From: an uncultured Bacilli bacterium
GTDB lineage: Bacteria > Bacillota_I > Bacilli_A > RF39 > UBA660
Direction: 5' to 3'
Length of the DNA: 37,959 bases
NCBI GenBank assembly: GCA_947630105.1
Contig: CANRGD010000004.1
Coordinates: 1 to 37,959 of the forward strand
Below, in pieces: positions 2,905 to 37,959 of the stretch. The notes under the pieces were generated by a model that was given only the letters and a program-made list of their open reading frames with translations, searched no databases and was not told where the DNA came from. A program made the translations under genes and the position numbers. Every line of letters starts with the position of its first letter. The stretch's first letter is position 1.

Positions 2905-2926
2905 TATAAGTATGTAGGTGAATTGT

Positions 2927-3442: not shown

Positions 3443-3515
3443 ATATGTTAAGGATCTTATTAATAATTATGTTAGCTTATTAAATTTAAATATGGTAGAA
3501 TTATTTTGGGTGGTT

Positions 3516-3857: not shown

Positions 3858-4682
3858 ATGAAGAAAATAGGGAAAATAATTTTTTTAGTTTTATTGGTTT
3901 TTTTATGTAATGGTTGTAATGGTACTATTACTAGAAATATTCGGCATGCAGGATTTAATCTAAGTTCTAATGAATTTATTTGTGATGAGTTATTACCTAA
4001 GAAAGATAGTACTAATTTTTTAAAAATGAGATATTTTATGGGTAATTTGGCAATTATGGATGATGGAAGTATTTATGAAATTTCATTAGATAAAAATTTT
4101 TCTAATAATAAGAATTGTAGAAAAGCAGCTACTAATTTAGGTGTAGTTTCTATTTTTGATTCAGTTTTTAAATCAAATGATGGAAATATTTATAGTTTAG
4201 TGGCTTCTAATAATAATCAAGCATATAGTGCTGTTACTAGTGCGGATAGTAATTATAATTTGTATAAATTATTATTGGGGGATAATAATATTATAAAGGT
4301 ACAAACAGTTGATAATAATGGTTCTTATTATGTATTAAAAAATGATGGAAATATTTATAATTATAATATTTCTAATAATGAAAATAATAATTATACTATT
4401 TTAAGTAGTAGTATTGTGTATGATAAAAATAATTATGGGGGAAGTAATATAATAGATTTTAATTATGCAGGTAAATCACTTAATACTTTTTTTAAAACTG
4501 AAGATAAAGTTTATAGAATGTATAATACTAATCGAGATTCTTGTAATAAATTTGCAGATGTTCCATGTGAATTTGAATTGAAAAATGATGAAATTTTTAC
4601 TACTTATAAAGATAAAATATTAGCATATAATGGAAGTATGCTTATAACTACTTATGGAAATGAATTTACAGTTTCTTCTTAG
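3858..4682 (+). CDS. Putative lipoprotein / secreted protein with repeated DG(N/S)IY motifs (possible beta-propeller)
   Basis: N-terminus MKKIGKIIFLVLLVFLCNGCNG is a signal peptide with Cys near the cleavage region. SD is AGGGAGG. Recurrent motifs: DDGSIYEIS, NDGNIYSLV, NDGNIYNYN, EDKVYRMYN. Confidence 0.7.
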   Translation: MKKIGKIIFLVLLVFLCNGCNGTITRNIRHAGFNLSSNEFICDELLPKKDSTNFLKMRYFMGNLAIMDDGSIYEISLDKNFSNNKNCRKAATNLGVVSIFDSVFKSNDGNIYSLVASNNNQAYSAVTSADSNYNLYKLLLGDNNIIKVQTVDNNGSYYVLKNDGNIYNYNISNNENNNYTILSSSIVYDKNNYGGSNIIDFNYAGKSLNTFFKTEDKVYRMYNTNRDSCNKFADVPCEFELKNDEIFTTYKDKILAYNGSMLITTYGNEFTVSS

Positions 4683-6322: not shown

Positions 6323-7282
6323 ATGAATTTTGATTTAGGTTGGTTTTTAACTATACCAGGAATGTTAATTACTGGTGGAGTTATTTTATTAATTATAGCT
6401 TTAATAATTTTAATTGTTACTTCAGCAAAAGCTAAAAAAGAGAAAAAAAGTGAAGAAGCAAATGGAGGAATTGGTAATCAATCTTCAATTCCAGGTCAAG
6501 TTGTCGGTGTAAATAATCAAGGAATGGACAATCCAATGAATATGCAACCAGGATTAAATAATATGACTATGGGTGATGCTCCTGTTATGACTAATCCTAC
6601 TCCTCAAGTTGATATGGCTCAACAATCAGCACCAATGATGGAACCTGTGCCAGTTACTTCTGTAGTAGAAGCAGCTCCTGTTAATTCAGAAGTTGCCCCA
6701 GTTGCTCCTGTAGTAGAAACAGCTCCTGTTGTTAGTCCAGAAGTTGCCCCAGTTGCTCCTGTAGTAGAGCCAGTTGCTCCTGTTGTTAGTCCAGAAGTTG
6801 CTCCAACTATTCCTGTAGTAGAACCAGTAGTTCCTGTTGTTAGTCCAGAAGTTGCCCCAACTATTCCTGTAGTAGAACCAGTAGCTCCTGTTGTTAGCCC
6901 AGAAGTTGCTCCAACTATTCCTGTAGTAGAACCAGTAGCTCCTGTTGTTAGCCCAGAAGTTGCTCCTGCAGTAGAAGCAACAGCTCCTGTTAGTCCAGAA
7001 GTTGCTCCAACAAATGCTGCTCCTGTGATATATGGTGGAGCTAATCCAGCAGTTACAGATATAAATATTAATCAAAATTCTACACATCAAATATATGGTG
7101 GTGCAGATCCATTACAAAATACACAACCACTACCAGCAGTTGCACAAGCTTCTACAGATACAGCTCCTGTTAACAGTACACCTACAATTCAATCTTCAAC
7201 ACCAGTAATTGAGCCATTAGGACAACAAGCATCTATTCAAACACCACCTTCTGAAGTTTCGTCAATTCCAGTAGGACAGTAA
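6323..7282 (+). CDS. N-terminally membrane-anchored Pro/Val/Ala/Glu-rich repeat protein (surface spacer-like)
   Basis: TM helix '[27 protein letters not shown]' followed by KAKKEKK. Then 18-aa tandem repeats [18 protein letters not shown] and a Q/T/S/P-rich tail. No LPXTG motif. Confidence 0.85.
6680..7010 (+). repeat. In-frame 54-bp tandem repeat array (about 4 near-identical copies plus degenerate flanking copies)
   Basis: Copies start at 6734, 6788, 6842 and 6896, with a diverging copy at 6950. Copies B-D differ at only 2-3 nt. A shorter 48-nt degenerate unit lies at ~6686-6733. Confidence 0.9.
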
Positions 7283-13852: not shown

Positions 13853-13884
13853 GTTGTATAATTTTGTAAAGATAGGTGATTTCT

Positions 13885-20083: not shown

Positions 20084-20115
20084 TATTTATAAATTCTTTA
20101 AAAGAGGTGATAAAA

Positions 20116-20952
20116 ATGGCATTAATTCAAATACTTGATTGTAGTGATACTTTAGGAACATGTTGTAGTGATTATGGAATTGTAAGTGTTTTAGATGTAA
20201 TAAGAAAAGTATTAGAATTATTTCAATTACTTGTACCAATTTTACTTATAGTTGGAACTACTGTACAATTTATAGTTTTAGCTTCAAATCCTGAAGCTAA
20301 AGATGGATTAAAAAAGTTATCAAATAAATATATTGCTGCTGTTGTGTGTTTCTTTTTACCAATAATTGTTAATGTTGTATTAAATTTATTACCTGAAAAT
20401 TTTGAAATTTCTTCTTGTTGGCAAACAGCAAAAGTTTCTGCAGAAATGGTGAGAATGCAAGAATCAAAATATATTAATCCCCATACTAAAGAAGCAAAAT
20501 CTATAATAATAAATGCTGATGATTATGAAAAAGCTTCAAAAAATAATGATAATAGTAATAGTAGTGATAAAGCAAAAGAAATTGTTGCTTATGCCAAAAG
20601 CTTTGTAGGACAACGTTATGTTTATGGAGGTAGTTGGAATGGGGAACTTCCCTATACAGGTACAGATTGTAGTGGATTCGTGCAAGGTGTATTTAAACAT
20701 TTTGGAATAAATTTAAGCAGAACTACTTATAGCCAATGGGCAGATACTAATTCTTATACATTAGTTAGTTCTGGTAGTATTCAAGCTGGTGACTTAGTAA
20801 TGTATGATGGACATGTAGGCATATTAACTGGAAATGGGTATGAAATGGTGCATGCACAATCGACAAGGACAGGGATAGTTTTGTCTAATGATTATAGAAC
20901 ATGTTCAAGTAAAGCTATCTTAGGTATTATGCGTATAAAAGGGGTTAACTAG
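20116..20952 (+). CDS. Membrane-anchored NlpC/P60 peptidoglycan endopeptidase with Cys-rich N-terminus and two TM helices
   Basis: C-terminal 'YVYGGSWNG...GTDCSGFVQGVFKHFGINLSRTTYSQW...GDLVMYDGHVGIL...VHA' carries the Cys-His-His triad. N-terminal 'DCSDTLGTCCSDYG' is followed by two hydrophobic helices. ATG 20116 lies 5 nt after AGAGGTGA. Confidence 0.85.
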   Translation: MALIQILDCSDTLGTCCSDYGIVSVLDVIRKVLELFQLLVPILLIVGTTVQFIVLASNPEAKDGLKKLSNKYIAAVVCFFLPIIVNVVLNLLPENFEISSCWQTAKVSAEMVRMQESKYINPHTKEAKSIIINADDYEKASKNNDNSNSSDKAKEIVAYAKSFVGQRYVYGGSWNGELPYTGTDCSGFVQGVFKHFGINLSRTTYSQWADTNSYTLVSSGSIQAGDLVMYDGHVGILTGNGYEMVHAQSTRTGIVLSNDYRTCSSKAILGIMRIKGVN

Positions 20953-20960
20953 GAGGATTT

Positions 20961-21728
20961 ATGTTATTAAAAGAAAAAAAGGTACATAATAATAAGAAAA
21001 ATACTAAAGCAATGAATAAAAATAATACTATTATTATTGCTATTACAGCAGCTGTTTTTGGAATTATATTTGTTATTGTGTTTATGATTAATCAAAATAA
21101 TAATAGAAATTATAATAATATAAAGATTACTAAAAATAAGTATTTAGTTTATACAAAAACTGAAAATACAACTGGTAAATTTTCTCAAGAAATTCCTTTT
21201 TTAAATATTGATTGTCCTATTGCTGAAAGTATTAATAAAGACATAGATATGTTTTTAAGTTCATTTAATAATTCTAATAAAAATATTATTAATTATGAGT
21301 ATAATATAAATGGAATAATTTTATCATTAGTAGTGAAAGTTGTTGATTATGATACAACTAATGCTCCTAATGTTTATTTTAGAACTTATAATTTTAATTT
21401 GGATACTTTAGAAGCTATTTCGGATGAGGCATTATTAAATTTTTTTGGAGTAGAGGCTGATACAGTTAGACAAAAAATTGAAGATAAATTTAAAGATTAT
21501 TATTATGAGGAACTAAAAGAAGGGTATTTGAATCAAAGTGAATGTGATTTTGATTGTTTTATTACTTACCGAGGATTTCAGGGGTATATGGAAGATATTC
21601 ATTACTATGTAGAAGCTGGTAAATTAGTTTTGTTTAAACCATTTATATTTGCTTCTATTTATGGGGAAGAAGAATTTTTTACAGATGAACATTTTAAATT
21701 TTTAATAGCAAATTTTTCTAATAAATAA
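20961..21728 (+). CDS. Bitopic membrane protein, extracytoplasmic domain of unknown function (weak DUF4163/DUF3298-like start)
   Basis: TM helix 'IIIAITAAVFGIIFVIVFMI'. 'EIPFLNIDCPIAESINKDIDMFL' loosely recalls DUF4163. SD is AGGAGG. Confidence 0.65.
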   Translation: MLLKEKKVHNNKKNTKAMNKNNTIIIAITAAVFGIIFVIVFMINQNNNRNYNNIKITKNKYLVYTKTENTTGKFSQEIPFLNIDCPIAESINKDIDMFLSSFNNSNKNIINYEYNINGIILSLVVKVVDYDTTNAPNVYFRTYNFNLDTLEAISDEALLNFFGVEADTVRQKIEDKFKDYYYEELKEGYLNQSECDFDCFITYRGFQGYMEDIHYYVEAGKLVLFKPFIFASIYGEEEFFTDEHFKFLIANFSNK

Positions 21729-21765
21729 AATAATAGTTACATTAAGTTGAGAAGGATTGTTTATT

Positions 21766-22608
21766 ATGGAAGAAAAAAGTAATAAAAATTTAGGGTTTAT
21801 AATAATTATTTGGGTACTTGTATTATTAATAATAGTCTTAGCTGGCTATATTTTAATTGATAAAAATATTATTAGCTTTAAAGATAATAAGATAGGGGTG
21901 TCTGATTCAGAAAATATAGGTGTGGATATAGAAGATAGAGAAGAAAAAATTAGTATTAATAATTCTGTTATTAAAACAATGTTTGAAAGTGCTCATGGAT
22001 ATTCAATTGGTCCTTGGGAACCAATTTTTGCTGCGGGAGGCTATGATATCAAAACAGCTGATACTGATTTTAAATTTAAATTATCTTTTAAACAATGGGA
22101 AAAAGAAGTAAAAACTTATGATACAACACAAAATGGATTATATTATGAAGTTAGCGAAGAAGCTGTAAAAAATGGGTATGAAAAATTATTTGGTCCTAAT
22201 ACTTATAAAAATATTGCACAAATAAAAACAGAATGTGAAACTTATACATATGATGCTACTAATAAGGTTTATCGTGCTGATGTTGGAGGTTGTGGAGGAG
22301 TAGCAGTTTTTGATGTTTATGAAAAAATTATTTCTGCAACACGATATAGTGATAGGATAGAAATAGTTAGTGCAGTATTTTATGAAGAAGAAAATTCTTT
22401 ATATAAAGATTATACTAAAACTAGTAGATTAACTGGTAATACTTGGCAAGATATTTCTAATACCGAAGAAAATGTTTTAAAAATAAAAGAATTAAAAGAT
22501 CAATATATTGAAAGTAATAAAGATAATTTAGAACAATATAGGTATATTTTTAAAGTGGCTGAGGATGGATTTTATTATATTGATCAAGTTAAACGAACTA
22601 AATCATAA
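21766..22608 (+). CDS. Bitopic membrane protein of unknown function
   Basis: TM helix 'LGFIIIIWVLVLLIIVLAGYILI'. ATG 21766; the track start is TTG 21757. No motif recognised. Confidence 0.65.
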   Translation: MEEKSNKNLGFIIIIWVLVLLIIVLAGYILIDKNIISFKDNKIGVSDSENIGVDIEDREEKISINNSVIKTMFESAHGYSIGPWEPIFAAGGYDIKTADTDFKFKLSFKQWEKEVKTYDTTQNGLYYEVSEEAVKNGYEKLFGPNTYKNIAQIKTECETYTYDATNKVYRADVGGCGGVAVFDVYEKIISATRYSDRIEIVSAVFYEEENSLYKDYTKTSRLTGNTWQDISNTEENVLKIKELKDQYIESNKDNLEQYRYIFKVAEDGFYYIDQVKRTKS

Positions 22609-26542: not shown

Positions 26543-27460
26543 ATGAGTTCATTAATTAATATATTATTTATATTTATTGGAAAGAATAATTTTTTTGAGT
26601 TAAATAGAACAAAAAATTATATTATAGAGAAAAATTATATAAAAGAAGAAGTGGAGTATTTAAAAGAAAATAAAGTTTTAAAAATAAATATAGAAATTCC
26701 TAAAGAATATTCAAAAAAACAAATAGAAATAGAACCTAGTATTTTTGATGGATTAAGGGAATATAAAAAAATAAGGGCTGATGAACAAACTGATGTGATA
26801 ATTGAAATTTTTAATAAAAGTAGATATACATATAAATATAAAGCTAAAAGTTTTAAAGTTGAGACGGTAAAGATAACTAGGGATTTTGATAATTATAAAA
26901 AAAGTGGTGGAGTAGGATTTGATAAAAAAGATATATATGAAATATTTATACCTATTAGGTGTTATAATGAAGCATTATATTCTTTATATAATGATGAGTT
27001 TAAAGAAGAATATTTAAAAGATGAGATATTAGATAGTAAACTTAAAAGTAGAGGATATGATGGTATTAAACAATTAGATAACTATTATAAAGATTTTTTT
27101 AATTTAAAATATGGTAAAAACTATAAAAAATTTGAGGATGTAGATGTAGATTTAAAAGGAAAAATATTTAAGGGGGAGACTAGTTCTATATTTGAGAGCA
27201 ATATACTAATAATAGAGGAAGCTTATAAATATTTTTATCAAAATATTATGACAATTATATTAAAAGATAAAAATAAAAAATATAGTATATATGATATTAT
27301 GAATAGTAATAGTGGAGATACATATTTAAAAGATGAATTGGCTGTTATTAATAATAATAGTAAAAAAAAGCTAAAATTAACTATAAATATAAATAACTAT
27401 TATGAAGCATTTGAAAAGTATAATTATTATGGAAATTTAAGATTTATACTTGAAAAATGA
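26543..27460 (+). CDS. Hypothetical Lys/Tyr-rich protein (305 aa) with a hydrophobic N-terminus
   Basis: SD GAGGTGA. N-terminal 'LINILFIFIG'. No recognisable domain. Confidence 0.6.
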   Translation: MSSLINILFIFIGKNNFFELNRTKNYIIEKNYIKEEVEYLKENKVLKINIEIPKEYSKKQIEIEPSIFDGLREYKKIRADEQTDVIIEIFNKSRYTYKYKAKSFKVETVKITRDFDNYKKSGGVGFDKKDIYEIFIPIRCYNEALYSLYNDEFKEEYLKDEILDSKLKSRGYDGIKQLDNYYKDFFNLKYGKNYKKFEDVDVDLKGKIFKGETSSIFESNILIIEEAYKYFYQNIMTIILKDKNKKYSIYDIMNSNSGDTYLKDELAVINNNSKKKLKLTININNYYEAFEKYNYYGNLRFILEK

Positions 27461-27554: not shown

Positions 27555-29114
27555 ATGATTATCAGAAAACCTTATGCTTTTTTAATTAAAAATTTTAGAA
27601 AAATTCATATTTTCTTGTTTATTATATGTGCTTATATATATTATAAAATGTTACGAGTAAGTTCATTTGTACGAGAATTTATGGAGTTGGGAAGTTATGA
27701 TGTATATAATGAACCAATATCTAAATATATATCAGGGATTACTATTTTAAGTTTATTAATTATAATTTCTACTAGTATAATACTTATTATTTTATTGAAA
27801 CATAAAAATAAACCTTGGAAATTATACTTGTTATTTATGAGTTATGTGGTAATATTATTAATTTTTATGTGGACTTCTAGTTTTTTTAATTCTTATAATG
27901 GTAGTTTGGAAACTACTAATATTAGATTAATTAGGGATTTATTATTTATAAGTTCTATTTTTCAATATCCTGTATTTATAATTTTATTAATGCGTATATT
28001 TGGTATTGATCTTCATAAATTTAATTTTAATAAAGATGTTGAATTTTTAGAATTAGATAGTGAAGATCGTGATGAAGTTGAAATTAGTATAGATATTGAT
28101 AAAGAATCTTTTAAAAGATTATATAGAAAATTTTTAAGAAATTTAAATTACTTTTATTTAGAACATAAAGCTATTTGTAATACAGTTATTGTAGCTATAG
28201 TAATAATTTTAATTAGAAATGCCTATGTTTTTATTTTTGTAACTAATAAATCTTATATGGAAAATGAAATTTTAAATGCAAATGGATATTCGATTAAAAT
28301 AAATAATAGTTATTATACAAATAGGAAATATAATGGAGAAATTATTTCTAATAAGCAAAGTTTTATTGTTATTGATTTAACAATTAAAAATAATATTGCA
28401 GAGAGAAATATAGATTTAGATAATTTTCATGTTTTAAATGGAGTGGAAAATTATAAACAAACTAAAAAAACTTATGAGACAGAATTTAAAGATTTAGGTG
28501 TATCAACAGATAGTGTGCAAAAAATAAAAAAAGATGAGAGTAAAAACTTTATTTTAATTTATAGAGTGGATAATAAATTACCAATTAAAAGATTTGTCTT
28601 ATATTATCAAGAATTAGGAAATAATCCATTTTTAAGAAAAATAAAATTATCTATTAAAGATGTTTCGAAGATTAAAGAAAATAAAGAATTAAATTTGGGG
28701 GATGAATTAGATATCAATATTTTAAATAAGCAGGAAAAGATTATTTTTGAAGAGTATAAATTTTTAGATGAAATGAATTATATATATCAAAGTTGTATTG
28801 GAAATAAATGTGTTAATAAGACGGAGATGTGTACGGCTAAAGAAGGGGAAAAAATTCTTTATTTATCTTTTTCATCAGATACATTTGAGGGAAAAGAAAT
28901 GATTGACTTTTCAAGTAGTTATGGTAAAATTATTTATAAGAATAGCGTAGGTAAAGAAGAGACTTTGGAAATAAAAAATTATGTACATAAAAATTATAAT
29001 GGTAAATATTTGTATTTGAGAGTTCCAGCAGAAATTACTACGGCAACTGATATAAAGCTTGTATTTACAGTAAGAAATAATAAATATATTTATAATTTAT
29101 TAAAGGGAGAGTAA
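27555..29114 (+). CDS. Polytopic membrane protein with large C-terminal extracytoplasmic beta-rich region (DUF4352-like segment, tentative)
   Basis: About 4 N-terminal TM helices plus one central helix ('ICNTVIVAIVIILIRNAYVFIFV'). 'SFIVIDLTIKNNIAERNIDLDNFHVLNG' resembles DUF4352-type Ig-like folds. Confidence 0.7.
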   Translation: MIIRKPYAFLIKNFRKIHIFLFIICAYIYYKMLRVSSFVREFMELGSYDVYNEPISKYISGITILSLLIIISTSIILIILLKHKNKPWKLYLLFMSYVVILLIFMWTSSFFNSYNGSLETTNIRLIRDLLFISSIFQYPVFIILLMRIFGIDLHKFNFNKDVEFLELDSEDRDEVEISIDIDKESFKRLYRKFLRNLNYFYLEHKAICNTVIVAIVIILIRNAYVFIFVTNKSYMENEILNANGYSIKINNSYYTNRKYNGEIISNKQSFIVIDLTIKNNIAERNIDLDNFHVLNGVENYKQTKKTYETEFKDLGVSTDSVQKIKKDESKNFILIYRVDNKLPIKRFVLYYQELGNNPFLRKIKLSIKDVSKIKENKELNLGDELDINILNKQEKIIFEEYKFLDEMNYIYQSCIGNKCVNKTEMCTAKEGEKILYLSFSSDTFEGKEMIDFSSSYGKIIYKNSVGKEETLEIKNYVHKNYNGKYLYLRVPAEITTATDIKLVFTVRNNKYIYNLLKGE

Positions 29115-29116
29115 AC

Positions 29117-30937
29117 ATGAATAAAAAGGTTATTAAATATATAAAATTAGCTATCACATTTGGTATTGTAGCACTATTTGTATGGTTTTTAGTTTTATAT
29201 CCATATATTAAGTTTAAAGGATATGAAAAAGCAATGGAAAAAGCTGGAAAAAGATATTTTTCAATTAATAGTACAGAATTGCCTTCTGGAGAAAGAATTA
29301 AGACAATTACCTTACAAGATTTATATTATAAATCATTTTTAAATGAAGATTTTTATATTCCCTATACTAAAAAGCCTTGTTCTTTAAAAGAAAGTTTTAT
29401 TAAAGTAAAAAGAGTAGATGGAGAATATAAGTATTATACATATTTACAATGTGGTGTTATTGCTTCAAATATAGATCATAAAGGACCAACTATTACTTTA
29501 AATGGTAAAGAAGATATTACTATTACTAGAGGTGATGAGTTTACTGATCCAGGAGTAAAAAGTGTTGTTGATAATGTAGATGGTAAAATGAATACTAATA
29601 AAGTTACAATAAAGGGAAAAGTTGATACAACTAAAGTTGGAACTTATGAAGTTACTTATAGTGCTTTAGATTCTTTAAATAATAAAACAGAAGTTGTTAG
29701 AAAAGTTAATGTTGTTGAAAGATTAATTAGTACAGCTAAAGATACTATTAAAAGTACTAATAGTACTAATAATTATTATATGGGTGATTCAAAAAATAGT
29801 TATCTATTATTTTCAGGAATGCTTTTTAGGATAATGGCAGTTGATGGTAATAATGTAAAGATTGTTGCAAATAATGATATTGCAAATGTTAATTATGAAG
29901 GAATAGATAAGTGGTTAAGTGATTATTTTTATAAACATTTAACTAAAGAGAGTAAAAAATTAATAGTTAATAATAAATATTGTAATATGAAAGTTACAAA
30001 TGAAAATTTAAATTCTACGGAATGTAGTTCTTATACAGGGTCTAGAAGTAGTTATATTCCTTCAATTGTTGATGTTAACTTATCAAAAGATGAGCAAGGT
30101 AATACTTATTTAAAACCATCTACTATGAGTTGGATTGCAGAATCAATGGATGATAATACAGGATATGTAATAAGAAATTATTTCTTTGGAGAGTATTATA
30201 ATGATACATTTTTAGCAGTAAATAAGAAATATAATTTTGGAATTAGACCTGTAATTACTATAAAAGGTGATACATTAATAAAATCAGGTACTGGTACAGT
30301 AGATAATCCTTATACGTTAGGAGATATAATACCTGGTAAAGTAGATGATAAAGTTAATACAAGATTTTCAGGAGAATATTTAAACATTGCAGGTAATGAT
30401 TATAGAATTATTGAAACATTAGATGATGGAACAACAAAAGTTATAGGTGAATATTCAATATTTAATGATAGAGAACAAATTACTACTAAGTATAATGTTG
30501 CTGCTGAAGAAGAAGTATATAATCCAAAACAACAAGGAAATGTAGGTTATTTTATAAATAATAAAATAAGTGAATATATAAATACTAGTTATTTTGTTAA
30601 TCATCAAATAGAAGTTCCAATTTATAAAAATGATGCTGCTTATGGTAAAGAAAGTGAAACAAAGAAATATAAAGTTAAATTATCAGCTCCTAATATGTAT
30701 GAAATGTTTAGTACTTTTAATGATAATTCATTTATGAAATCTTATTGGTTAATTAATTCATCTTTAAATAATGATTTAAAATATGCTGTTTCTGATATTG
30801 GATCAGTAATGTATTATGAAAATGGAGCAGCAAATTATGATTATTATGGAATTAGACCAGTTGGATATTTAAATAAAAATTGTTCTATTGTTAGTGGAAA
30901 AGGTACTAAAAACAATCCATATATAATTGATAAGTAG
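29117..30937 (+). CDS. Bitopic surface protein: N-terminal anchor, DUF5011-type bacterial Ig-like domain, two modules ending in GIRPV...G(T/K)GTxxNPY
   Basis: TM helix 'LAITFGIVALFVWFLVLYPYI'. 'DHKGPTITLNGKEDITITRGDEFTDPGVKSVVDNVDGKMNTNKVTIKGKVDTTKVGTYEVTYSALDSLNNKTEVVRKVNVV' is a close DUF5011 pattern. 'FGIRPVITIK...GTGTVDNPYTLG' and 'YGIRPVGYLNK...GKGTKNNPYIID' follow. Starts 2 nt after the upstream stop. Confidence 0.8.
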   Translation: MNKKVIKYIKLAITFGIVALFVWFLVLYPYIKFKGYEKAMEKAGKRYFSINSTELPSGERIKTITLQDLYYKSFLNEDFYIPYTKKPCSLKESFIKVKRVDGEYKYYTYLQCGVIASNIDHKGPTITLNGKEDITITRGDEFTDPGVKSVVDNVDGKMNTNKVTIKGKVDTTKVGTYEVTYSALDSLNNKTEVVRKVNVVERLISTAKDTIKSTNSTNNYYMGDSKNSYLLFSGMLFRIMAVDGNNVKIVANNDIANVNYEGIDKWLSDYFYKHLTKESKKLIVNNKYCNMKVTNENLNSTECSSYTGSRSSYIPSIVDVNLSKDEQGNTYLKPSTMSWIAESMDDNTGYVIRNYFFGEYYNDTFLAVNKKYNFGIRPVITIKGDTLIKSGTGTVDNPYTLGDIIPGKVDDKVNTRFSGEYLNIAGNDYRIIETLDDGTTKVIGEYSIFNDREQITTKYNVAAEEEVYNPKQQGNVGYFINNKISEYINTSYFVNHQIEVPIYKNDAAYGKESETKKYKVKLSAPNMYEMFSTFNDNSFMKSYWLINSSLNNDLKYAVSDIGSVMYYENGAANYDYYGIRPVGYLNKNCSIVSGKGTKNNPYIIDK

Positions 30938-30946
30938 GTGATAATT

Positions 30947-31753
30947 ATGACAAAGAAAAAAAGAAAAGCAAATTATAATAAAATAATTATTTTAGGAATT
31001 GCTTTTCTAATTTTCTGTTTAATAATTGGTAGTGGTATTTTTTGGATCTTGTCAAAAAAATATACGATAGTATCTAGAGTTTCAAATATAGAGGAATATT
31101 CAAAAAATGATCCACAAGAATATAAAACAGTAGGGTGGCTTAAAGTTGAAGGAACTAATATAGATTATCCAGTAATATATGGACCTAAATATGATATAAG
31201 TAAAAAGGTTGATGATTTTGTATGGACTGAGGCAGACTTTAATGATTTAAATAATATAGTGTTTATTACAGGACATAATATTTTGAATTTATCTAATAAA
31301 CCTTTAATAACAGATGCTAATCATAAAAGATTTGAACAATTAATGAGTTTTACATATTTAGATTTTGTTAAAGAAAATAAGTATATTCAATATACATTTA
31401 ATGGGAAAGATTATCTTTATAAAATATTTGCTGTTTCTTATGTTAAACCTAATGAATTAGATGTTTATAATGATACTATGTATAAAGTTGAAGAATTACA
31501 AGGATACATTAATAAATCTTTAAAAAATAGTATTTTTGATTTTGATGTTAAGGTTAATGGAAAGGATAAAGTAATATCTCTTATAACTTGTACAAGAATG
31601 ATGAAATTAAAAAATGCTAATTATAATTTTAAAGTAGATGCTAGGCTAGTTAGAAAAGGTGAATTAATAAAAAATTATAAAGTTAAAAAGAATACAAATT
31701 ATAAAGAAATAGAGAAATATATGAAAGGTGGAGATGTAGATGAAAAAGCGTAA
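30947..31753 (+). CDS. srtB: Class B sortase (SrtB-like transpeptidase)
   Basis: Aligns by eye with S. aureus SrtB: 'VGWLKVEGTNIDYPVIYG' (cf. IVGWIKLSGTSLNYPVLQG), 'IVFITGHNI' (catalytic His), 'VISLITCT' (TLxTC-type Cys, codon at 31589-31591), and 'KVDARLV' (Arg). N-terminal TM anchor. Confidence 0.85.
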   Translation: MTKKKRKANYNKIIILGIAFLIFCLIIGSGIFWILSKKYTIVSRVSNIEEYSKNDPQEYKTVGWLKVEGTNIDYPVIYGPKYDISKKVDDFVWTEADFNDLNNIVFITGHNILNLSNKPLITDANHKRFEQLMSFTYLDFVKENKYIQYTFNGKDYLYKIFAVSYVKPNELDVYNDTMYKVEELQGYINKSLKNSIFDFDVKVNGKDKVISLITCTRMMKLKNANYNFKVDARLVRKGELIKNYKVKKNTNYKEIEKYMKGGDVDEKA

Positions 31754-34673
31754 TAAAAGAATAATTGGGGTAGTTATATTCTTATTAGCGTTAGGTCTCC
31801 TAGGAACATTATTTATTGATACTGATAAAGTTAAGGCTGCAAATAAAACAAATAAAGTTAAATGTGATTCTGTGAGAGTAGAAGAAGAATTAGGATTAAA
31901 TGTGGCTCCTGATCTTGGAGATTCTTCTAATATAATTCTTGCTTCAGATAAAGGAGCATTTAAAATAGTAGAGGTTACAGAAAATAAAGATAAAATACTT
32001 ACAGAAGAAAGTAAATATATAGGTGTAGTGTTTGGGGCTGATGCAGGAAGTAGATTAACTTTAAAAGTTAAAAATTCTGGTGTTAGTTCTAGCGATCAAG
32101 TTACTTTAAAGCTTCAATTGACTACTGATTCTATAGAAGGTTGTAATAAAGAAGGATATGAATTTACATATAGTTTTACTTTAGCTAATTCTTCTAACAC
32201 TAAGACGCTTTCTCCTAATCCTCAATATAATACTTATTGTACATTTATTAGAACAGGACAAGATTATAATAAAAAGTTTTCAGATATTGTAAGTCTTTGG
32301 AATAGTAATTTTTCTAGTGACTATCAAGAAACTGCTGATTATTGTTATAATGCTAATGTAAAAGTTGTTTTAAGTGATAATACAGTTATAAATATGATTA
32401 AGGCAGCAGTTAATGCATCATATTATCAATCAATTGAAAATGAAGATATTGGTGATAGTGAATTTAATATTCGTTTTAAGGCTTGGAAAGAAGAAGCTCA
32501 AAAAACAAAGAGCCATGTATTTGAAGACAATAGTTATTTTAAGCGTGGTGGTGATGATTCTAAATTTAATTTTAATGATGATAGTTTAAAAATTGATCCT
32601 ATAGGGTTAACGTGTAATGCTGAATATACTGGAACATTATATAATGATGATGGGACATATGATTATGCTAATTCACAATATTATTATGCAAAAGAAACAG
32701 CAACTAGAAAAATAGCTTATAACAGTTGGAAAACAGGAAGTCGGGCACCAAGTACCAATAATGGTAGAGCTACTAATCGAAGTGATGCTTTAAAGATAAC
32801 AGGTAATTCTAAAAATGTATGTGATATATCATGTGAAGAAGTTGTAAAGGTTGATTATGGACCACCTATTGCTTCTAAAGCGGGGTTATGTTTTGAATAT
32901 CGAGTTAAAATAGCTAGTAAGGTAAAATGTAGTTCAAAAATTAATAAAAAATCTCAACCTAAACGAGATGATGATGTTTGTACACCATATCCATTATGTC
33001 AAAACGGTACGGTATTATATATGCATCAAGGAGGTCCAGTAGAAGAATTTGAAAAGTGTATTAATGAATGTGATGGTGGAAAATATAGCCAAAGTTGTAG
33101 TAATAAATGTTATGATGAAGTATATGGAAAGCAAAATAATATATTGAATACTAGATTTAATTCTTTTATAAGTCCAAGTAAAATAAGTTTTGATGAAAAT
33201 GTAAGTTATACATGTTCTAATGGTAAAGTTTTACCAACAAAAGGTTTTTACATACGTACAAGTAATGGTACTATTGATTGGCAATCAGCAATGCCTAATG
33301 GAAAATTTAGTTATGGAAGATATTATCTTGAAGAAGAATTAACTAGAACATGTGATGATCATGGAGAAGTAAAAGGAACATATGGTGTATTTAGAGATGA
33401 TGGTATTAAAAGACATAATTATGGTTCATATTTTTGTCAGGATTCATGTTCCTGGGAAGGGTGTGCTGATGCTACTTACTTAAATGCTAAAGATGCTGAT
33501 GCAGATTATAATCAACAAATGGAAGATTGGGAAGCTGCCATTAAAGATTGTGCTGCTAAAGCTTCTTGTACTGAAAAAACAGCGGAATTTACTATGACAA
33601 CTAGTTATACTGATGATAAAGGTACTAAAAAAACGATAACGTATCCAGCATCTAGTAGTAGTAAATTAAATTCAAAAAGCAAAGAAGATACTCCTGATTC
33701 TACGCAAACTAGCGATTCTGTTATTATAGATTATAATGGATGTTATGAAGATACTGATAATAGAAATTGGTATGAAACAGAAATTACATATCCTGGAACA
33801 TGGATAAACAATAAAACTGGAGAAATTTCATTTACTCCAAGAACTGATAGAGGATGGTATGAAGAAAAAGGAAAATTCTGTTTACCTTTAAATGCTCAAA
33901 ATGTTAATGTTGAGTGGTGGAATTGGTATATGAAATCTACGGCTCTTAAACAAGGCAATGATTACATGTATGAAAGTTCTAATTATGCGGATTCATGTTC
34001 AGCAATTAATAAAACAAATACTAGTAAAGCTAATATTAATAGTATTAAGGACGATATTATTTGGAATATAGCTGCAAAAATTAGAAAATTTGGACATTTT
34101 GGTTGGAAATTTGATGTTAGTTGTTTTTATGCATTAAATGATAATCCTGGTGAGGAAACAAATTCTTCTAGTAATTCCACTGATGATACTAGTATGTGTG
34201 AAACTAGTCCAACTAATTATCGTGTTAGAACTGTAGATAATAGTAATTTATTCCCAAGTGAAAAAGGAAATGATACTTTAGATAAATCTATTACTGGTAG
34301 AGAGGCTGGATTTAACTGGACAGATGCGGCAGCATTGAATAAATATAATAATTCGGGTGCTTATAATGTTATACCATCTCAATATATTGCTAATGTTCAA
34401 ACAAGAGGTGATACAATTTATCAAAATGATAATCAATATTTAGACTATTCATTCCATTTAACACCTACTGATTTGAGTAATATAAGAAAGTTTAATAAAG
34501 CAAATGGAGCATATACTAACTTTACAGGTAATTCAAGTATTATAAATGGTGTCTCAGCTTATGCTAGTAGCTTATTTAGAAATGGTGGAACAATCAAGGC
34601 TAATTCTTTAGGAAATATTGGTTGCAACAATGATGGAATTGGCAATAATTGTGAGAATTTTAAGGAGGGTTAA
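31740..34673 (+). CDS. Large secreted cysteine-rich protein (977 aa), unknown function, no cell-wall sorting signal
   Basis: Signal peptide 'MKKRNKRIIGVVIFLLALGLLGTLFIDTDKVKA'. About 29 Cys by my count, clustered for example in 'CTPYPLCQNG...CINECDGGKYSQSCSNKCYDE' and 'FCQDSCSWEGC'. Ends '...NNCENFKEG' without a hydrophobic tail. Overlaps the sortase gene by 14 nt. Confidence 0.8.
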   Translation: MKKRNKRIIGVVIFLLALGLLGTLFIDTDKVKAANKTNKVKCDSVRVEEELGLNVAPDLGDSSNIILASDKGAFKIVEVTENKDKILTEESKYIGVVFGADAGSRLTLKVKNSGVSSSDQVTLKLQLTTDSIEGCNKEGYEFTYSFTLANSSNTKTLSPNPQYNTYCTFIRTGQDYNKKFSDIVSLWNSNFSSDYQETADYCYNANVKVVLSDNTVINMIKAAVNASYYQSIENEDIGDSEFNIRFKAWKEEAQKTKSHVFEDNSYFKRGGDDSKFNFNDDSLKIDPIGLTCNAEYTGTLYNDDGTYDYANSQYYYAKETATRKIAYNSWKTGSRAPSTNNGRATNRSDALKITGNSKNVCDISCEEVVKVDYGPPIASKAGLCFEYRVKIASKVKCSSKINKKSQPKRDDDVCTPYPLCQNGTVLYMHQGGPVEEFEKCINECDGGKYSQSCSNKCYDEVYGKQNNILNTRFNSFISPSKISFDENVSYTCSNGKVLPTKGFYIRTSNGTIDWQSAMPNGKFSYGRYYLEEELTRTCDDHGEVKGTYGVFRDDGIKRHNYGSYFCQDSCSWEGCADATYLNAKDADADYNQQMEDWEAAIKDCAAKASCTEKTAEFTMTTSYTDDKGTKKTITYPASSSSKLNSKSKEDTPDSTQTSDSVIIDYNGCYEDTDNRNWYETEITYPGTWINNKTGEISFTPRTDRGWYEEKGKFCLPLNAQNVNVEWWNWYMKSTALKQGNDYMYESSNYADSCSAINKTNTSKANINSIKDDIIWNIAAKIRKFGHFGWKFDVSCFYALNDNPGEETNSSSNSTDDTSMCETSPTNYRVRTVDNSNLFPSEKGNDTLDKSITGREAGFNWTDAAALNKYNNSGAYNVIPSQYIANVQTRGDTIYQNDNQYLDYSFHLTPTDLSNIRKFNKANGAYTNFTGNSSIINGVSAYASSLFRNGGTIKANSLGNIGCNNDGIGNNCENFKEG

Positions 34674-34679
34674 AAGAAT

Positions 34680-35144
34680 ATGAATAAAGGTATGTTAACG
34701 GTTGGAATTATTTTATTAGCTTTGATTTCATTATTATTAATAAATGTTTTAAGTAATTATGAAACAGGTGGAGAATTAGATTATTATTTGTTAAAGGAAA
34801 CAACAACCGCAGCTATGGAAGATGCAATTGATTATAAATTTTATAGAGAAAATTCATTATATAGAATCGACAAAGAAAAGTTCGTTGAGAGCTTTCTTCG
34901 TCGATTTGCAGATAATGTAGATAATACTCGAACTTATGATATAAAATTTTATGATATTAATGAGGTGCCTCCTAAAGTAAGTGTTAAAATTGATTCTTTA
35001 ACAGTTTTAAGTTTTCAAAATTCAGCAGCTAATATTTCAACTCAAATAGATTCTATTGTGGAATCTAATTATATAGGTGATCCTTATACTGAATATGGTC
35101 TTAAAGATTATAATAATATTTTAGGTAAACCGAATGAATCATAA
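34680..35144 (+). CDS. Small bitopic membrane protein (154 aa), candidate pilus/secretion accessory component
   Basis: SD AAGGAGGG. N-terminal 'MNKGMLTVGIILLALISLLLINVL' followed by a soluble domain. No G/FTLxE or G/xxxxEY prepilin motif. Confidence 0.7.
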   Translation: MNKGMLTVGIILLALISLLLINVLSNYETGGELDYYLLKETTTAAMEDAIDYKFYRENSLYRIDKEKFVESFLRRFADNVDNTRTYDIKFYDINEVPPKVSVKIDSLTVLSFQNSAANISTQIDSIVESNYIGDPYTEYGLKDYNNILGKPNES

Positions 35145-35170
35145 GGAATTAAAATAGAAAGGGTGATAAA

Positions 35171-35977
35171 ATGGGGAATATAAGTCAAAGTATAAAAAAA
35201 TTTATGCAAAATAAGAATACAGTTACAGTATTAGGTGTAATTGCAGCAATTGCAGTTTTATATGTAGCTTATAATTGGCGTGTAAAATCTGCAATTAATC
35301 CAGTAAATGTTCCATATGCTATTAAGCAAATTAATCCTGGAACGCAAATAACATCTGATATGGTTGGAACAAGACAAGTACCACCAGCAATGTTAGAAGG
35401 TGATGTACTAAGAAATGTAGGAGATGTAATTGATAAATATTCTAGTGCAGATACAGTTATTCCTGAAGGAAGTTTATTTTACTCAAGAGCAGTTGTTGAA
35501 GAAGAACAATTACCAGGAAATATTATTTTAAAATATCCTGCTGGTTATGTTCTTTATAATATGGCTGTTGATACAGAATCAACATATGGTAACTCTATTT
35601 ATCCAGGTAATTATATTGATATTTATTTAAAGGCAGTTAATAAAATTTATGATGAGCAACAAATAACTCCAGATGCAGATAAAATAATGTTGGGTAAATT
35701 TATTTCAAATGTTAAGGTTTTAGCCGTAAAAGATTCTAATGGACAACCAGTATTTTCTAATTTAGATGAACAACGTACTCCCGCTATGATAGTATTTGCA
35801 GTACCAGAAGAATATTATATTTTACTTAAAAAAGCAGAATATTTGAGATCATATGAATCTACTTTAATTCCTGTTCCTACTAATGAAAGTTTAAAAGATG
35901 AACAAGGTGATTTGGAAATTAGTAGTGAAAGTTTGAAAGAATGGATTAATACTGTTACAGTATGGGATGAGACTTAA
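35171..35977 (+). CDS. cpaB: Flp/Tad pilus assembly protein CpaB/RcpC-like (SAF plus RcpC domains)
   Basis: N-terminal TM helix. SAF-like 'VPYAIKQINPGTQITSDMVGTRQVPPAML...VIPEGSLF', and RcpC-like 'MAVDTESTYGNSIYPGNYIDIYL...NVKVLAV'. Confidence 0.7.
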   Translation: MGNISQSIKKFMQNKNTVTVLGVIAAIAVLYVAYNWRVKSAINPVNVPYAIKQINPGTQITSDMVGTRQVPPAMLEGDVLRNVGDVIDKYSSADTVIPEGSLFYSRAVVEEEQLPGNIILKYPAGYVLYNMAVDTESTYGNSIYPGNYIDIYLKAVNKIYDEQQITPDADKIMLGKFISNVKVLAVKDSNGQPVFSNLDEQRTPAMIVFAVPEEYYILLKKAEYLRSYESTLIPVPTNESLKDEQGDLEISSESLKEWINTVTVWDET

Positions 35978-36003
35978 TTTTTAGAATAAAAAGGGTGAGT
36001 TAA

Positions 36004-37377
36004 ATGAACGAAAATATATTTGATAAGTTAGATTTTGGTCCATTAAAATCATTATTAGATAATGATGATATTACAGATATCTCTTATGATAATAATGGGC
36101 AAATTTGGATTCGATCATTAACTCAAGGATCAATGCGTGTTGAAGTTGAAGGGGCAACTCCAGAATTTATCGAAAAACTAGCTTTTCAGTGTTCAAATGT
36201 TATGGGAACAACATTTAATAATGCTAAACCATTTTTAGATGCTGAATCTGCCGAATTACGTCTTAACTTTGTTCATCAGTCTATAGCAACAAATGGTATT
36301 GCACTGGTTATTCGTAAAACACCAGCTAAAATTAGACTGGAGAAAGAAAAGTTATTAAAAGAAGATTATTTTACTAATGATATTCATGATTTATTAATTA
36401 AATGTGTTCAAGGACATTGTAATATTATGGTGGCTGGAGAAACTGGTTCTGGTAAAACAGAATTTGTTAAGTATTTAGCTAGTCATACTAAAACGGATGA
36501 AAAAATTATTACAATTGAGGATACTTTGGAATTACATTTAGATAAAATTTTTCCTCAACGAGATATTGTAGCAATGAAAACAAATAATGTTGCTAGTTAC
36601 ACTGATGTTTTAGTTACTTGTATGCGACAAAATCCAAAATGGATTTTACTATCTGAAGTTCGTAGTGCTGAAGCAGTTTCTGCTGTTCGTAATTCAATAT
36701 CTTCAGGACATAATATTTTATCTACAATTCATGCTGATAAAGCTTCAGCTATTCCTTATCGTTTATATTCTTTAATGGAAACAGATTTGGATGTTAACCA
36801 ATTTTTATCTACAATTTATCGGTATATTCAATTAGGAGTGCATATAAAAGCTTATTACAGTAAACAATATGGAAAATTTCACAGGGAAGTTGATGAAGTT
36901 ACAGAATTTTATGTTGATGAAGATAATGTTCCTAAGTCGAGGACAATTTATCAAAAGATTTATGGGCAAAGTCCTATGATGTGTAAACCTAGTGCTCATT
37001 TAATAGAGTACTTAGAAAATCAAAATATAGATATAAGTTCTATTATTGCAAGATTACCTGATGAGTTACCAATTAGGGAACAAGGCGAATATGAATTTGA
37101 AAATGTGACTTCCCCTACTGGGGAAAAAGATACAATTAACACACAAAGTAATATTCAACAAAATTCTGAAATTCAGCAGACAACAAATGTGTCTCAACCA
37201 AAGCAAAGTAGTGAAAGTACTCAAGAAAATAGTAGTGCTTCTACTCCTGTTATTCAACCAATTAAAACTGATACTTTGCCAACGATAACACCTGTAGAAA
37301 CAACACAAAATACTCAGAGTGTAGTTCAACCACTTAATTCATCACCAAATGTAAATATTACTAAACTTGATGGATAG
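36004..37377 (+). CDS. CpaF/TadA/VirB11-family secretion ATPase with a ~90-aa Gln/Ser/Thr/Pro-rich C-terminal tail
   Basis: Walker A 'VAGETGSGKTEFVKYL' (nt ~36433-36460), 'ITIEDTLEL', Walker B/Asp box 'NPKWILLSEVRSAEA', His box 'GHNILSTIHA'. The tail runs from ~37080. Confidence 0.85.
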   Translation: MNENIFDKLDFGPLKSLLDNDDITDISYDNNGQIWIRSLTQGSMRVEVEGATPEFIEKLAFQCSNVMGTTFNNAKPFLDAESAELRLNFVHQSIATNGIALVIRKTPAKIRLEKEKLLKEDYFTNDIHDLLIKCVQGHCNIMVAGETGSGKTEFVKYLASHTKTDEKIITIEDTLELHLDKIFPQRDIVAMKTNNVASYTDVLVTCMRQNPKWILLSEVRSAEAVSAVRNSISSGHNILSTIHADKASAIPYRLYSLMETDLDVNQFLSTIYRYIQLGVHIKAYYSKQYGKFHREVDEVTEFYVDEDNVPKSRTIYQKIYGQSPMMCKPSAHLIEYLENQNIDISSIIARLPDELPIREQGEYEFENVTSPTGEKDTINTQSNIQQNSEIQQTTNVSQPKQSSESTQENSSASTPVIQPIKTDTLPTITPVETTQNTQSVVQPLNSSPNVNITKLDG

Positions 37378-37390
37378 AAAGGAGATTTTT

Positions 37391-37959
37391 ATGTATATAG
37401 AAGAATTATTAATTATAGTTATTTTTATAGTCTGTATTTATTTATATCGTAATTATAAAGGCCAGAATGTTGGAAAATATATAGTTAATCAATTTCAAGT
37501 TATGTATGATAGATTTGCTCCTTATTCATTTAAAATGGTGAGAGAGAAAACTAAACAATTAGGGCAAGAATACACAGCAAGGCAATATATGATACAAATA
37601 TTAGTTATAGCTGGATTTACAGCAGTGGTTACTTATTTATATTTTTATAATTTAGTTATAAGTATATTTTATGTAGTGGTTTCTATTATGTTTGTACCAT
37701 ATTTATCTTATTTAAGATGTAAAAGAGTATATAGTGAATTTTTATTTGAACAAGTTCAAGTTTATACTACTAATACGATTATGGAGTTTGCAACTACTCA
37801 ATCTTTTGTAAAAGCATTAGAAGGTGTTAGAAATTCTGGAGTATTAGAAGATCCTGTAAAAAGAGATGTTTCTCATATGATTGAACTTGCATATCAAAAT
37901 GGTACTATTGAGGAATCACTAGATTATATGAATAATTTATATCCTTATTTTATTGTTAA
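37391..37959 (+). CDS. TadB/TadC-like type II secretion system F-family membrane protein, 3'-partial (runs off the window)
   Basis: SD AAGGAG 7 nt before ATG 37391, and the frame is open to the last base. TM helices are followed by 'FEQVQVYTTNTIMEFATTQSFVKALEGVRNSGVLEDPVKRDVSHMIELAYQNGTIEESLDYM', the T2SS-F cytoplasmic pattern. Not in the supplied ORF track because no stop lies inside the window. Confidence 0.7.
   Translation, partial: MYIEELLIIVIFIVCIYLYRNYKGQNVGKYIVNQFQVMYDRFAPYSFKMVREKTKQLGQEYTARQYMIQILVIAGFTAVVTYLYFYNLVISIFYVVVSIMFVPYLSYLRCKRVYSEFLFEQVQVYTTNTIMEFATTQSFVKALEGVRNSGVLEDPVKRDVSHMIELAYQNGTIEESLDYMNNLYPYFIV

Follow-up and report, generated by a model that had tools for sequence, protein, structure and literature searches.

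The type IV secretion systems (T4SSs) of Gram-positive bacteria are said to lack VirB2 pilins and to rely on LPxTG adhesins (PMC12857230, PMC12102498). An exception is found in Patescibacteria, where a chromosomal, relaxase-less T4SS derived from the MPF_FATA class and equipped with arrays of VirB2-like pilins is essential for the epibiotic growth of Southlakia (PMC12102498, PMC12857230). T4SSs that cooperate with type IV pili are known from R64 and PAPI-1 of diderm bacteria (PMC12857230), and lineage-wide Tad clusters have been found in the gut Clostridia order TANB77 (PMC11680825). Here, we analyze a stretch of 37,959 nucleotides (nt) from an uncultured Bacilli bacterium of the order RF39 (GenBank assembly GCA_947630105.1, contig CANRGD010000004.1, positions 1 to 37,959 of the forward strand; hereafter the window), whose last eight genes, from position 27555 to the window end, had been interpreted from the DNA letters and their translations as a non-canonical Tad-type operon with an embedded sortase (the original prediction). 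Together, they make up the 5' third of a ~29-kb chromosomal locus of ~22 to 23 genes that is vertically inherited and found throughout RF39 (class Bacilli). Because the locus runs on into a T4SS beyond the window, its most likely function shifts: with moderate confidence, we suggest that it encodes a contact-dependent attachment and transfer machine and not a stand-alone Tad pilus.

The extent of the locus emerged from its relatives. A profile of the family of the 977-amino-acid (aa) protein encoded by the fourth of the eight genes, run on one genome per species, found relatives in 166 genomes; 78 loci were fetched, and the window proteins together with the downstream proteins of one homologous locus (L002) were compared by phmmer with all open reading frames (ORFs) of 82 loci, in which shortfalls reflect contig ends. 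Following greA, the locus begins with genes for a 519-aa protein, a 606-aa protein, a sortase, the 977-aa protein, and a DUF5411 protein, and continues with those for a CpaB-like protein, an ATPase, and proteins of 300 aa and 267 aa. Next come a ~50-aa pilin-like protein, one or two ~150-aa proteins, and proteins of 336 aa, 112 aa, 158 aa, and ~690 aa. The locus ends with a membrane hairpin protein of 103 to 107 aa, a split VirB4, a 785-aa SpoIID hydrolase, a 259-aa protein, VirD4, and a 410-aa protein with a transmembrane (TM) segment and a DUF6273 domain. Four independent contigs are unbroken from the 977-aa gene to VirD4 (L084, L085, L087, and L089), and homologous contigs run on to the T4SS, so that the window indeed cuts the gene set, as had been supposed; for the window's own contig, the sole other contig with an identical ATPase is 2 kb long and gave no extension. 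The locus is flanked upstream by greA or other housekeeping genes and downstream by dedA, rmuC, and other housekeeping genes; greA was seen in 65 of the 82 loci and adjoins the locus in most of those that reach far enough upstream. In distant lineages with a 977 family of ~25% identity (L097 and L100), the gene order is kept beside different chromosomal neighbors. The hosts are nearly all uncultured gut bacteria represented by metagenome-assembled genomes from human, rabbit, goat, cattle, deer, mouse, and chicken, which are labeled as Bacilli, Tenericutes, Mollicutes, or Erysipelotrichaceae, while a few labels of Muribaculaceae or Acidaminococcus are taken as mis-assignments. Candidatus Faecimonas, which is among the carriers, is placed by GTDB in the order RF39 (PMC8035907).

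Across most of the window, the G+C content is 19% to 31% per kb and nearly all coding sequence lies on the + strand. The eight + strand reading frames from 27555 onward start and end as originally called, with intergenic gaps of +2, 0, -14, +6, +26, +26, and +13 nt, though for the sortase an ATG at 30947, behind an AGGTGA, is the more likely start, giving a preceding gap of +9 rather than 0. A ribosome-binding site of the GGAG/GGTG type is present at seven of the eight starts and also at ATG 30947. A scan found no terminator-like sites between the eight genes; promoter and terminator scans are uninformative in DNA of 24% G+C (93 promoter-like sites versus 101 expected). Since each of the eight genes has homologues in the same order in 62 to 81 of the 82 related loci, they are not chance ORFs. 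The view that these tightly packed genes form one unit is thus borne out, including the co-conservation of the upstream five genes with the CpaB/CpaF/TadB core, which held across related loci and on whose failure the original prediction would have foundered. The 305-aa gene at 26543-27460, once considered a possible further member, matches no family and lies outside the conserved set because it recurs in just 8 of the 82 loci. Farther upstream, the window holds housekeeping genes: dnaE, lspA, rluD, a YqgF-like nuclease gene, mltG, U32 peptidase genes, an HD-domain gene, and greA.

The genes of the locus differ strongly in how fast they evolve. Median identity across species is 82% for the pilin, 78% to 79% for the platform-like proteins, 77% for the ATPase, 71% for the CpaB-like protein, and 66% for the DUF5411 protein, and then falls to 52% for the 606-aa protein, 48% for the 519-aa protein, 47% for the sortase, and 39% for the 977-aa protein, the fastest-evolving gene. 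This steep gradient across the locus points to a constrained engine with a diversifying exterior. Duplication was never seen for the genes of the motor, the pilin, and the T4SS, unlike the block of the 606-aa, sortase, 977-aa, and DUF5411 genes described below.

The locus has three parts. The first is an envelope and recognition cassette formed by the 519-aa protein (DUF4352), the 606-aa protein (Ig-like and DUF6273), the sortase, the 977-aa protein, and the DUF5411 protein. The second is a highly divergent Tad-like type IV filament module composed of the CpaB-like protein, the ATPase, two platform-like proteins, the pilin, the pseudopilins, and the 336-aa protein. The third is a relaxase-less T4SS of Gram-positive type with two VirB2-like proteins, a VirB6-like and a VirB3-sized protein, the split VirB4, the SpoIID hydrolase, the 259-aa protein, VirD4, and the terminal DUF6273 protein. 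In the proposed machine, ATPase and platform would build a thin fiber or a short wall-crossing pseudopilus from the small pilin and the minor pilins, while the fast-evolving lectin-like and Cys-rich proteins would serve exposed target recognition and be anchored by the sortase to peptidoglycan or to the fiber. Aided in crossing the wall by the CpaB-like, SpoIID, and NlpC/P60 proteins, the T4SS with VirD4 would then transfer macromolecules between an RF39 cell and the cell that it touches; these may be DNA, as in the oriT-independent chromosomal transfer of Mycoplasma, or proteins.

On sequence grounds, the identification of the T4SS half is secure. VirD4 matches PF02534 (1.6e-57), TraG-D_C, and TrwB_AAD_bind, scores 306.8 bits against the NCBIfam model conju_CD1115 (cutoff 250), and is 73% to 82% identical among the non-redundant relatives listed. 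VirB4 matches AAA_10, P-loop_TraG, and DUF87, and its best NCBIfam score is to the VirB4 model of Mycoplasma integrated conjugative elements (ICEs), Mbov_0397 (2.6e-106; 356 bits, under its cutoff of 590), ahead of CD1110 (9.4e-51). In every locus read gene by gene (L084, 12394-14792; L095, 4404-6748; L096, 4374-6763), it is split into two overlapping ORFs, a TraC-like part of 184 to 203 aa and an ATPase part of 596 to 597 aa; both parts were detected in 11 of 14 loci, and a split that is conserved in this way is no sequencing error. The polytopic VirB6-like protein of ~690 to 700 aa matches TrbL_4 at 4.4e-5, under the cutoff, and Mbov_0396 with 20 bits. The VirB2-like proteins of 112 aa and 158 aa are paralogues (hhalign, 98.7%) that score 16.5 to 16.9 bits against the T4SS_pilin family PF18895, under the cutoff of 26.6, and are encoded by two genes in 56 of 58 loci and by three in the other 2. 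The membrane hairpin of 103 to 107 aa (VirB3-sized) and the bitopic 259-aa protein have no match and are provisionally assigned by size and position. The 785-aa hydrolase carries a SpoIID domain (2.9e-11) and is not of the usual CHAP/SLT type. A SpoIIIA-like sporulation channel, as a SpoIID domain together with a secretion ATPase might indicate, was rejected given the lack of any SpoIIIA NCBIfam match and the presence of VirB4, VirD4, and VirB6.

A further hydrolase gene lies ~6.6 kb upstream of the locus (20107-20952, + strand), outside the eight-gene set and possibly associated with it. Its product combines an NLPC_P60 domain (2.1e-17) with a VirB2-like T4SS_pilin domain that passes the cutoff (27.7 bits, cutoff 26.6), and its N-terminus cross-matches the downstream 112-aa and 158-aa VirB2-like proteins in most loci. 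Such a fusion of NlpC/P60 and VirB2-like pilin is unusual, and a similar gene is found upstream of the locus in L002, L003, and L004. It is followed by genes for two bitopic proteins without any family (20961-21728 and 21757-22608).

The T4SS half resembles those of MPF_FATA systems and Mycoplasma ICEs (pCF10 Prg/Pcf, pIP501, Mbov_0395-0397) in the best model of its VirB4, its CD1115-family VirD4, its VirB6-like protein, and its membrane-anchored hydrolase, and its genes for surface proteins are located upstream of those for the channel, as prgA/B/C are on pCF10. Unlike these systems, the RF39 locus occupies a fixed chromosomal site and carries neither relaxase nor integrase, its hydrolase is SpoIID rather than CHAP/SLT, its VirB4 is encoded in two ORFs, its adhesin candidates have no LPxTG motif, and a pilus motor is built in. 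An ICE, or the decaying remnant of one, that carries pilus and adhesin genes by chance could account for VirB4, VirD4, and VirB6 being nearest to families named from Mycoplasma and Clostridioides ICEs, all the more as Gram-positive conjugative elements often bear surface adhesins and sortase substrates (PMC12857230). We nevertheless regard this origin as very improbable: no relaxase or integrase was called in the locus or within ~10 kb of it in the downstream and upstream contig stretches that were read, no repeats were noticed, and both flanks consist of housekeeping genes. In dozens of species the locus occupies the same place beside greA, and the profile relatives are spread over 166 species-level genomes. 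Moreover, all genes are intact and constrained, with motor genes staying 77% to 82% identical while species diverge.

In organization only, the locus is also like the Patescibacteria T4SS of Southlakia epibionticum, which is likewise chromosomal and widely conserved in a monoderm with a reduced genome, combines VirB3, VirB4, VirB6, VirD4, and a hydrolase (VirB3 and VirB6 being tentative calls in RF39) with PF18895/VirB2-like pilins, and has no relaxase nearby. The RF39 system belongs to another phylum, has two genes for VirB2-like proteins, or three in 2 of 58 loci, versus arrays of up to eleven, bears its filament genes in the same locus and of Tad-like rather than type IVa pilus kind, and includes a sortase and adhesin cassette. 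This resemblance bears on a further interpretation, which differs from our favored one only in the direction of transfer: the machine might be an importer that supplies a cell of reduced genome and auxotrophic metabolism with DNA or other molecules, drawn from the medium or from a cell in contact, with the fiber capturing the substrate or partner. Known machines of this kind include ComB of Helicobacter and Ced of archaea, and such a role has been put forward for the T4SS of Patescibacteria. The locus has no relaxase, RF39 genomes are indeed reduced and auxotrophic (PMC12306168), the Patescibacteria analogue is essential for epibiotic growth, and VirB4 and VirD4 show weak similarity to CedD (46 bits) and CedB (15 bits), respectively. 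However, the sequence gives no sign of direction, and the locus encodes a full VirD4 of a conjugation family above the curated cutoff, whereas the T4SSs that lack VirD4 include importers of exogenous DNA (PMC12857230). Taken together, we consider a dedicated import function improbable.

The Tad-like half is, by contrast to what the original prediction assumed, far less canonical: within the supposedly recognizable Tad motor, sequence searches pick up only the CpaB-like protein and the ATPase, while the platform gives a weak structural match. The 457-aa secretion ATPase (36004-37377, + strand) matches Pfam T2SSE (4.3e-28) and, among solved structures in the PDB, FlaI (3.6e-19), CpaF (8.6e-18), and VirB11 (7e-15). 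Since its NCBIfam scores for VirB11 (115 bits), TadA-conjugal (108 bits), and FlaI (95 bits) are all under the respective cutoffs, we describe it as a member of the FlaI/CpaF/VirB11 clade and make no orthologue call. Residues ~360-457 form a low-complexity tail rich in Gln, Ser, Thr, and Pro that is unusual for the family, and the protein varies from 428 to more than 700 aa across species. The 268-aa CpaB/RcpC-like protein (35171-35977, + strand) has a TM anchor and scores 22.0 bits for SAF (cutoff 21), 27.1 bits for RcpC (cutoff 28.8), and 38 bits for TIGR03177 cpaB (cutoff 71), with E = 0.067 to the RcpC structure 9gzr. These values weakly yet consistently suggest a CpaB/RcpC identity, and the topology fits. 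Two loci (L008 and L012) each have three CpaB-like paralogues.

The last gene in the window (37391-37959, + strand) encodes the first 189 aa of a ~300-aa polytopic protein that is cut by the window end. It had been read as T2SS-F-like, and this assignment finds no support by sequence: neither the window fragment nor full-length homologues matched T2SSF or any other family in Pfam or NCBIfam, the 267-aa protein likewise hits no family, and an attempt via distant relatives failed as well, since HMMER on 1.84 billion representatives gave relatives of 20% to 30% identity of which none matches T2SSF. An AlphaFold2 (AF2) model of a full-length homologue (P0335, ~300 aa) has a pLDDT of 84.5, and its soluble helical domain resembles the cytoplasmic domains of the GspF proteins EpsF/OutF (probabilities of 0.90/0.80/0.54, TM-score of 0.63 on the target, E values of 1.9 to 5.8). 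The model is suggestive, not proof, of a TadB/GspF-like platform, for which this protein is a candidate. Paralogy between the 300-aa and 267-aa polytopic proteins was not detectable, and profiles of the 300-aa and 336-aa families gave no meaningful match to PDB sequences.

The original prediction had also remarked that pilin and TadZ/CpaE are missing. There is indeed no pilin in the window and no TadZ/CpaE between CpaB and CpaF. The apparent lack of a pilin is, however, an effect of the window edge, as just downstream in homologous loci we find a ~50-aa pilin-like protein and, at the TadZ position, a 336-aa protein. The former begins with a short, basic leader that ends in Gly, and its sequence is nearly invariant across the order (MKAATGELNLTVITLIAIAAVIGFFW.MWP.I...IN.QW.NIS). 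It is followed by one or two ~150-aa Cys-rich pseudopilin-like proteins (MRDAFGG-IVNL...), which have no family match in Pfam or NCBIfam and whose leaders are like those of the pilin and the DUF5411 protein. For the 336-aa protein, searches of Pfam, NCBIfam, and PDB sequences gave no match; apart from its suggestive position, it shows only a degenerate P-loop-like motif (GxxNVTxxAGATT).

Similar to Tad/Flp systems such as those of Bifidobacterium breve or TANB77, the latter with the order CpaB-TadZ-CpaE-TadA-TadBC-pilins (PMC11680825), the RF39 module has a CpaB-like protein followed by an ATPase of the FlaI/CpaF clade and platform-like proteins; as in monoderm Tad/Flp systems, a very small pilin is accompanied by larger bitopic pilin-like proteins, and the cluster is conserved across an uncultured gut lineage. 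It differs in that its equivalents of platform, TadZ, and TadE/F are invisible by sequence, that the gene at the TadZ position follows the pilins instead of lying ahead of the ATPase, and that the motor is preceded by the sortase, 977-aa, and DUF5411 genes and followed by a T4SS. The pairing of a T4SS ATPase and coupling protein with a cell-contact type IV filament recalls the IncI R64 thin pilus and PAPI-1 of Pseudomonas aeruginosa (PMC12857230). Both of these are relaxase-bearing mobile elements that use type IVb pili and reside in diderm bacteria, whereas the RF39 locus is monoderm, chromosomal, and Tad-like.

The recognition and sortase cassette opens with the 519-aa polytopic membrane protein (27555-29114, + strand), whose gene was found at the first position in 76 of 82 loci. 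A TM scan places ~5 TM segments within the N-terminal 230 aa, which are followed by a beta-rich, extracellular C-terminal half; the beta-sandwich domain DUF4352 was detected in 19 of 25 homologues (best E value 2.7e-6), while the window copy has no Pfam match. That a prepilin peptidase hides in this protein was ruled out, as the 25 homologues match DUF4352 only and never Peptidase_A24. The bitopic 606-aa surface protein (29117-30937, + strand; found in 79 of 82 loci) combines an N-terminal TM anchor with the Ig-like domain PF16403 (8.6e-20), in line with the DUF5011 assignment made originally, as well as Big_3 and DUF6273 (8.5e-6). DUF6273 has a C-type-lectin-like fold in phage receptor-binding proteins (PMC10743442), and the 606-aa protein is probably a ligand-recognition protein. 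DUF6273 proteins stand at both ends of the locus, with this one near its start and the 410-aa protein at its terminus.

The 271-aa sortase (30938-31753, + strand; likely start at ATG 30947) has an N-terminal TM anchor and matches Pfam Sortase (1.5e-10). Its best solved relatives are SrtB proteins of Clostridium and Staphylococcus (8e-14 to 8e-8), which agrees with the class B originally proposed, but it is no SrtB equivalog because its score of 57 bits against TIGR03064 is far under the cutoff of 153.75. The catalytic His of GHN and Cys of TC do not vary, the position of Arg236 holds R in 67 of 79 homologues and K in the other 12, and a conserved C-terminal extension contains an invariant Tyr255. 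A working sortase fits RF39, given that the peptidoglycan wall is predicted as kept and that srtA/B are reported missing from the sister orders RFN20 and ML615J-28 and not from RF39 (PMC10868615). We scanned the alignments of 14 locus families for a conserved P-x-[TSA]: the 977 family shows only the internal core motifs YGPPVASKAGLCFEY and SFPGTWINNKTGE, and internal matches were also seen in the 519-aa, 606-aa, ATPase, and 300/267-aa families besides SAF-domain motifs in CpaB. The motifs NPYTL and NNPYII of the 606-aa protein were rejected as sorting signals, being a generic DUF6273 end with no TM segment after it.

The 977-aa protein (31740-34673, + strand) has a signal peptide and 29 Cys (3.0% versus at most 1.1% in its neighbors), as expected from its original description as a giant Cys-rich secreted protein. 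None of its 94 homologues of 850 to 1160 aa is named, and one has a precomputed Pfam domain, PF09479; 15 cysteines are invariant and 5 near-invariant. An AF2 model (mean pLDDT 73.4, pTM 0.61) gave no match in the PDB or BFVD at E < 0.01, including its confidently modeled core, and we therefore describe a new family of large Cys-rich proteins, predicted to be secreted, with no recognizable fold in the model.

The last member of the cassette is the 154-aa bitopic DUF5411 protein (34680-35144, + strand; Pfam, 1.7e-47), which has a short basic leader and a hydrophobic N-terminus (MNKG-MLTVGIILL) that is pilin-like in outline. Paralogy with the pseudopilin-like proteins or the pilin was tried by hhalign and nothing was found. 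Among 120 listed matches out of 1585 DUF5411 homologues, identity to the window copy is ~70% to 80%, all of these being close relatives. The block of 606-aa, sortase, 977-aa, and DUF5411 genes is duplicated wholly or partly in five species (L020, L027, L035, L039, and L043), and the full tandem cassette was read gene by gene in L043 (1026-13431) and in L020 (9989-20688), where the copy includes the 519-aa gene. The 977-aa gene is duplicated in 6 of 78 loci, and L012 has an extra 977 paralogue of ~1270 aa. That the cassette duplicates as a unit argues more strongly than anything else here for a joint function of the sortase with the 977-aa, 606-aa, and DUF5411 proteins.

Several observations weigh against the attachment and transfer machine, and some of them would suit a self-contained surface-fiber or secretion apparatus in which the pilus displays or exports the 977-aa protein, the sortase attaches it, and the T4SS is a separate neighbor. 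The four genes from the 606-aa protein to DUF5411 are always immediately ahead of the CpaB-like and ATPase genes, and a predicted operon in the Clostridia Roseburia, Ruminococcus, and Eubacterium places DUF5411 beside a CpaF-type ATPase, a PilC/GspF platform protein, and an adhesion-type protein with no T4SS mentioned (PMC9523054); going by the published description, it comprises eight to nine genes, and neither a sortase nor the 977 family is reported for it. The existence of lineage-wide Tad clusters in TANB77 would also fit. Platform and pilin genes are separated by a gap of 134 nt, which tolerates an ISL3 insertion in L003 and L004. Gap and insertion suggest more than one transcription unit, and the insertion suggests that pilin and downstream genes have their own promoter, so that the two halves could be adjacent yet independent. 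The insertions are ISL3-family transposase fragments on the - strand (L003, 17690-18329; L004, 17690-17863), with the rest of the locus intact.

Other points concern the parts themselves. The pilin-like protein has no Flp G/xxxxEY motif and no Pfam or NCBIfam match, and no prepilin peptidase (Peptidase_A24/TadV/CpaA) was found among the ~23 locus proteins or within ~10 kb downstream, so that of the pilin and peptidase genes once thought possible downstream, no peptidase gene turned up. The roles as platform, TadZ, pseudopilin, and VirB3/VirB8 are tentative assignments from position, topology, or a weak fold match, and the genome may encode a relaxase at another site. The alignments of the 14 locus families show no conserved C-terminal sorting signal (NPxTx/LPxTG, hydrophobic stretch, basic tail), the distant locus L098 (8207-13477) has no sortase in the 27-nt gap between its Ig-like and 977-family genes, and a 1124-aa member of the 977 family in L099 (10001-13375) is isolated next to a two-component system and distant from any locus of this type. 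The original prediction had combined Tad motor and sortase chemistry in one fiber or secretion apparatus with the T4SS out of its sight; the two do adjoin, while action of the sortase on the cargo is something we infer, as the cluster holds no sorting signal and L098 does without the enzyme.

A self-contained fiber nevertheless seems unlikely to us. In every contig that is long enough, closely spaced T4SS genes come next in the same orientation, including the distant L100 with its different chromosomal neighbors; proteins with DUF6273 open and close the locus; and only 58 nt separate the gene at the TadZ position from the VirB2-like pilins. We favor a domesticated contact-dependent machine because of the identity gradient, the duplication of the cassette, the bracketing by DUF6273, and the fixed site without mobility genes.

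Other features of the window are less closely tied to the locus. At its start, a gene on the + strand (44-2365) encodes a 773-aa protein with Asn-rich linkers, an HECLH motif, and a C-terminal domain of the HopA1 effector family (PF17914, 25.3 bits, cutoff 22.7), followed by four small unannotated ORFs (2382-3824) and a 274-aa protein that resembles a lipoprotein and weakly matches tachylectin (3858-4682). The 773-aa protein and its accessory genes resemble an effector or toxin and could be T4SS cargo. The window's only G+C peak (35.5%) coincides with a gene (6323-7282, + strand) for a membrane-anchored 319-aa protein that consists mostly of PVVSPEVAP-type tandem repeats of Pro, Val, and Glu. 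A hybrid histidine kinase (13876-16164, + strand) combines HisKA, HATPase, receiver, and Hpt domains with a long polytopic N-terminal sensor and has no adjoining cognate regulator.

In the part of the literature that we covered on DUF5411 and on RF39 with T4SS, pili, or secretion, no description of the locus was found, in agreement with the original view that the gene set is undescribed. What is new is the combination, the 977-aa family, and a sortase without evident substrate, whereas the modules belong to known superfamilies. The locus contradicts the textbook view of Gram-positive T4SSs without VirB2 pilins and of Tad systems with Flp pilin and TadV peptidase, and adds to Patescibacteria what may be another, independent example of a T4SS that was domesticated and has no relaxase in a monoderm with a reduced genome.

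RF39 bacteria, which rank among the most common uncultured lineages with reduced genomes in human and animal guts, are abundant in the guts of humans, ruminants, rabbits, and poultry, have small auxotrophic genomes, and have no cultured member. Complete metagenome-assembled genomes from HiFi sequencing are available for them (PMC9606305). A 29-kb locus that is kept intact in them, with motor genes ~80% identical, must matter to their way of life, and it offers candidate surface antigens and partner-recognition proteins for enriching, imaging, or culturing RF39. Speculatively, and with limited confidence, all parts may form a single hybrid nanomachine that is a core trait of RF39, in which a Tad-like motor, VirB2-like pilins, a Gram-positive T4SS, and a sortase-dependent, diversifying recognition head with a protein of new fold at its center serve docking for the exchange of DNA or nutrients. 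If true, this machine would be the Bacillota counterpart of the essential T4SS of epibiotic Patescibacteria and a clue to why RF39 bacteria resist cultivation.

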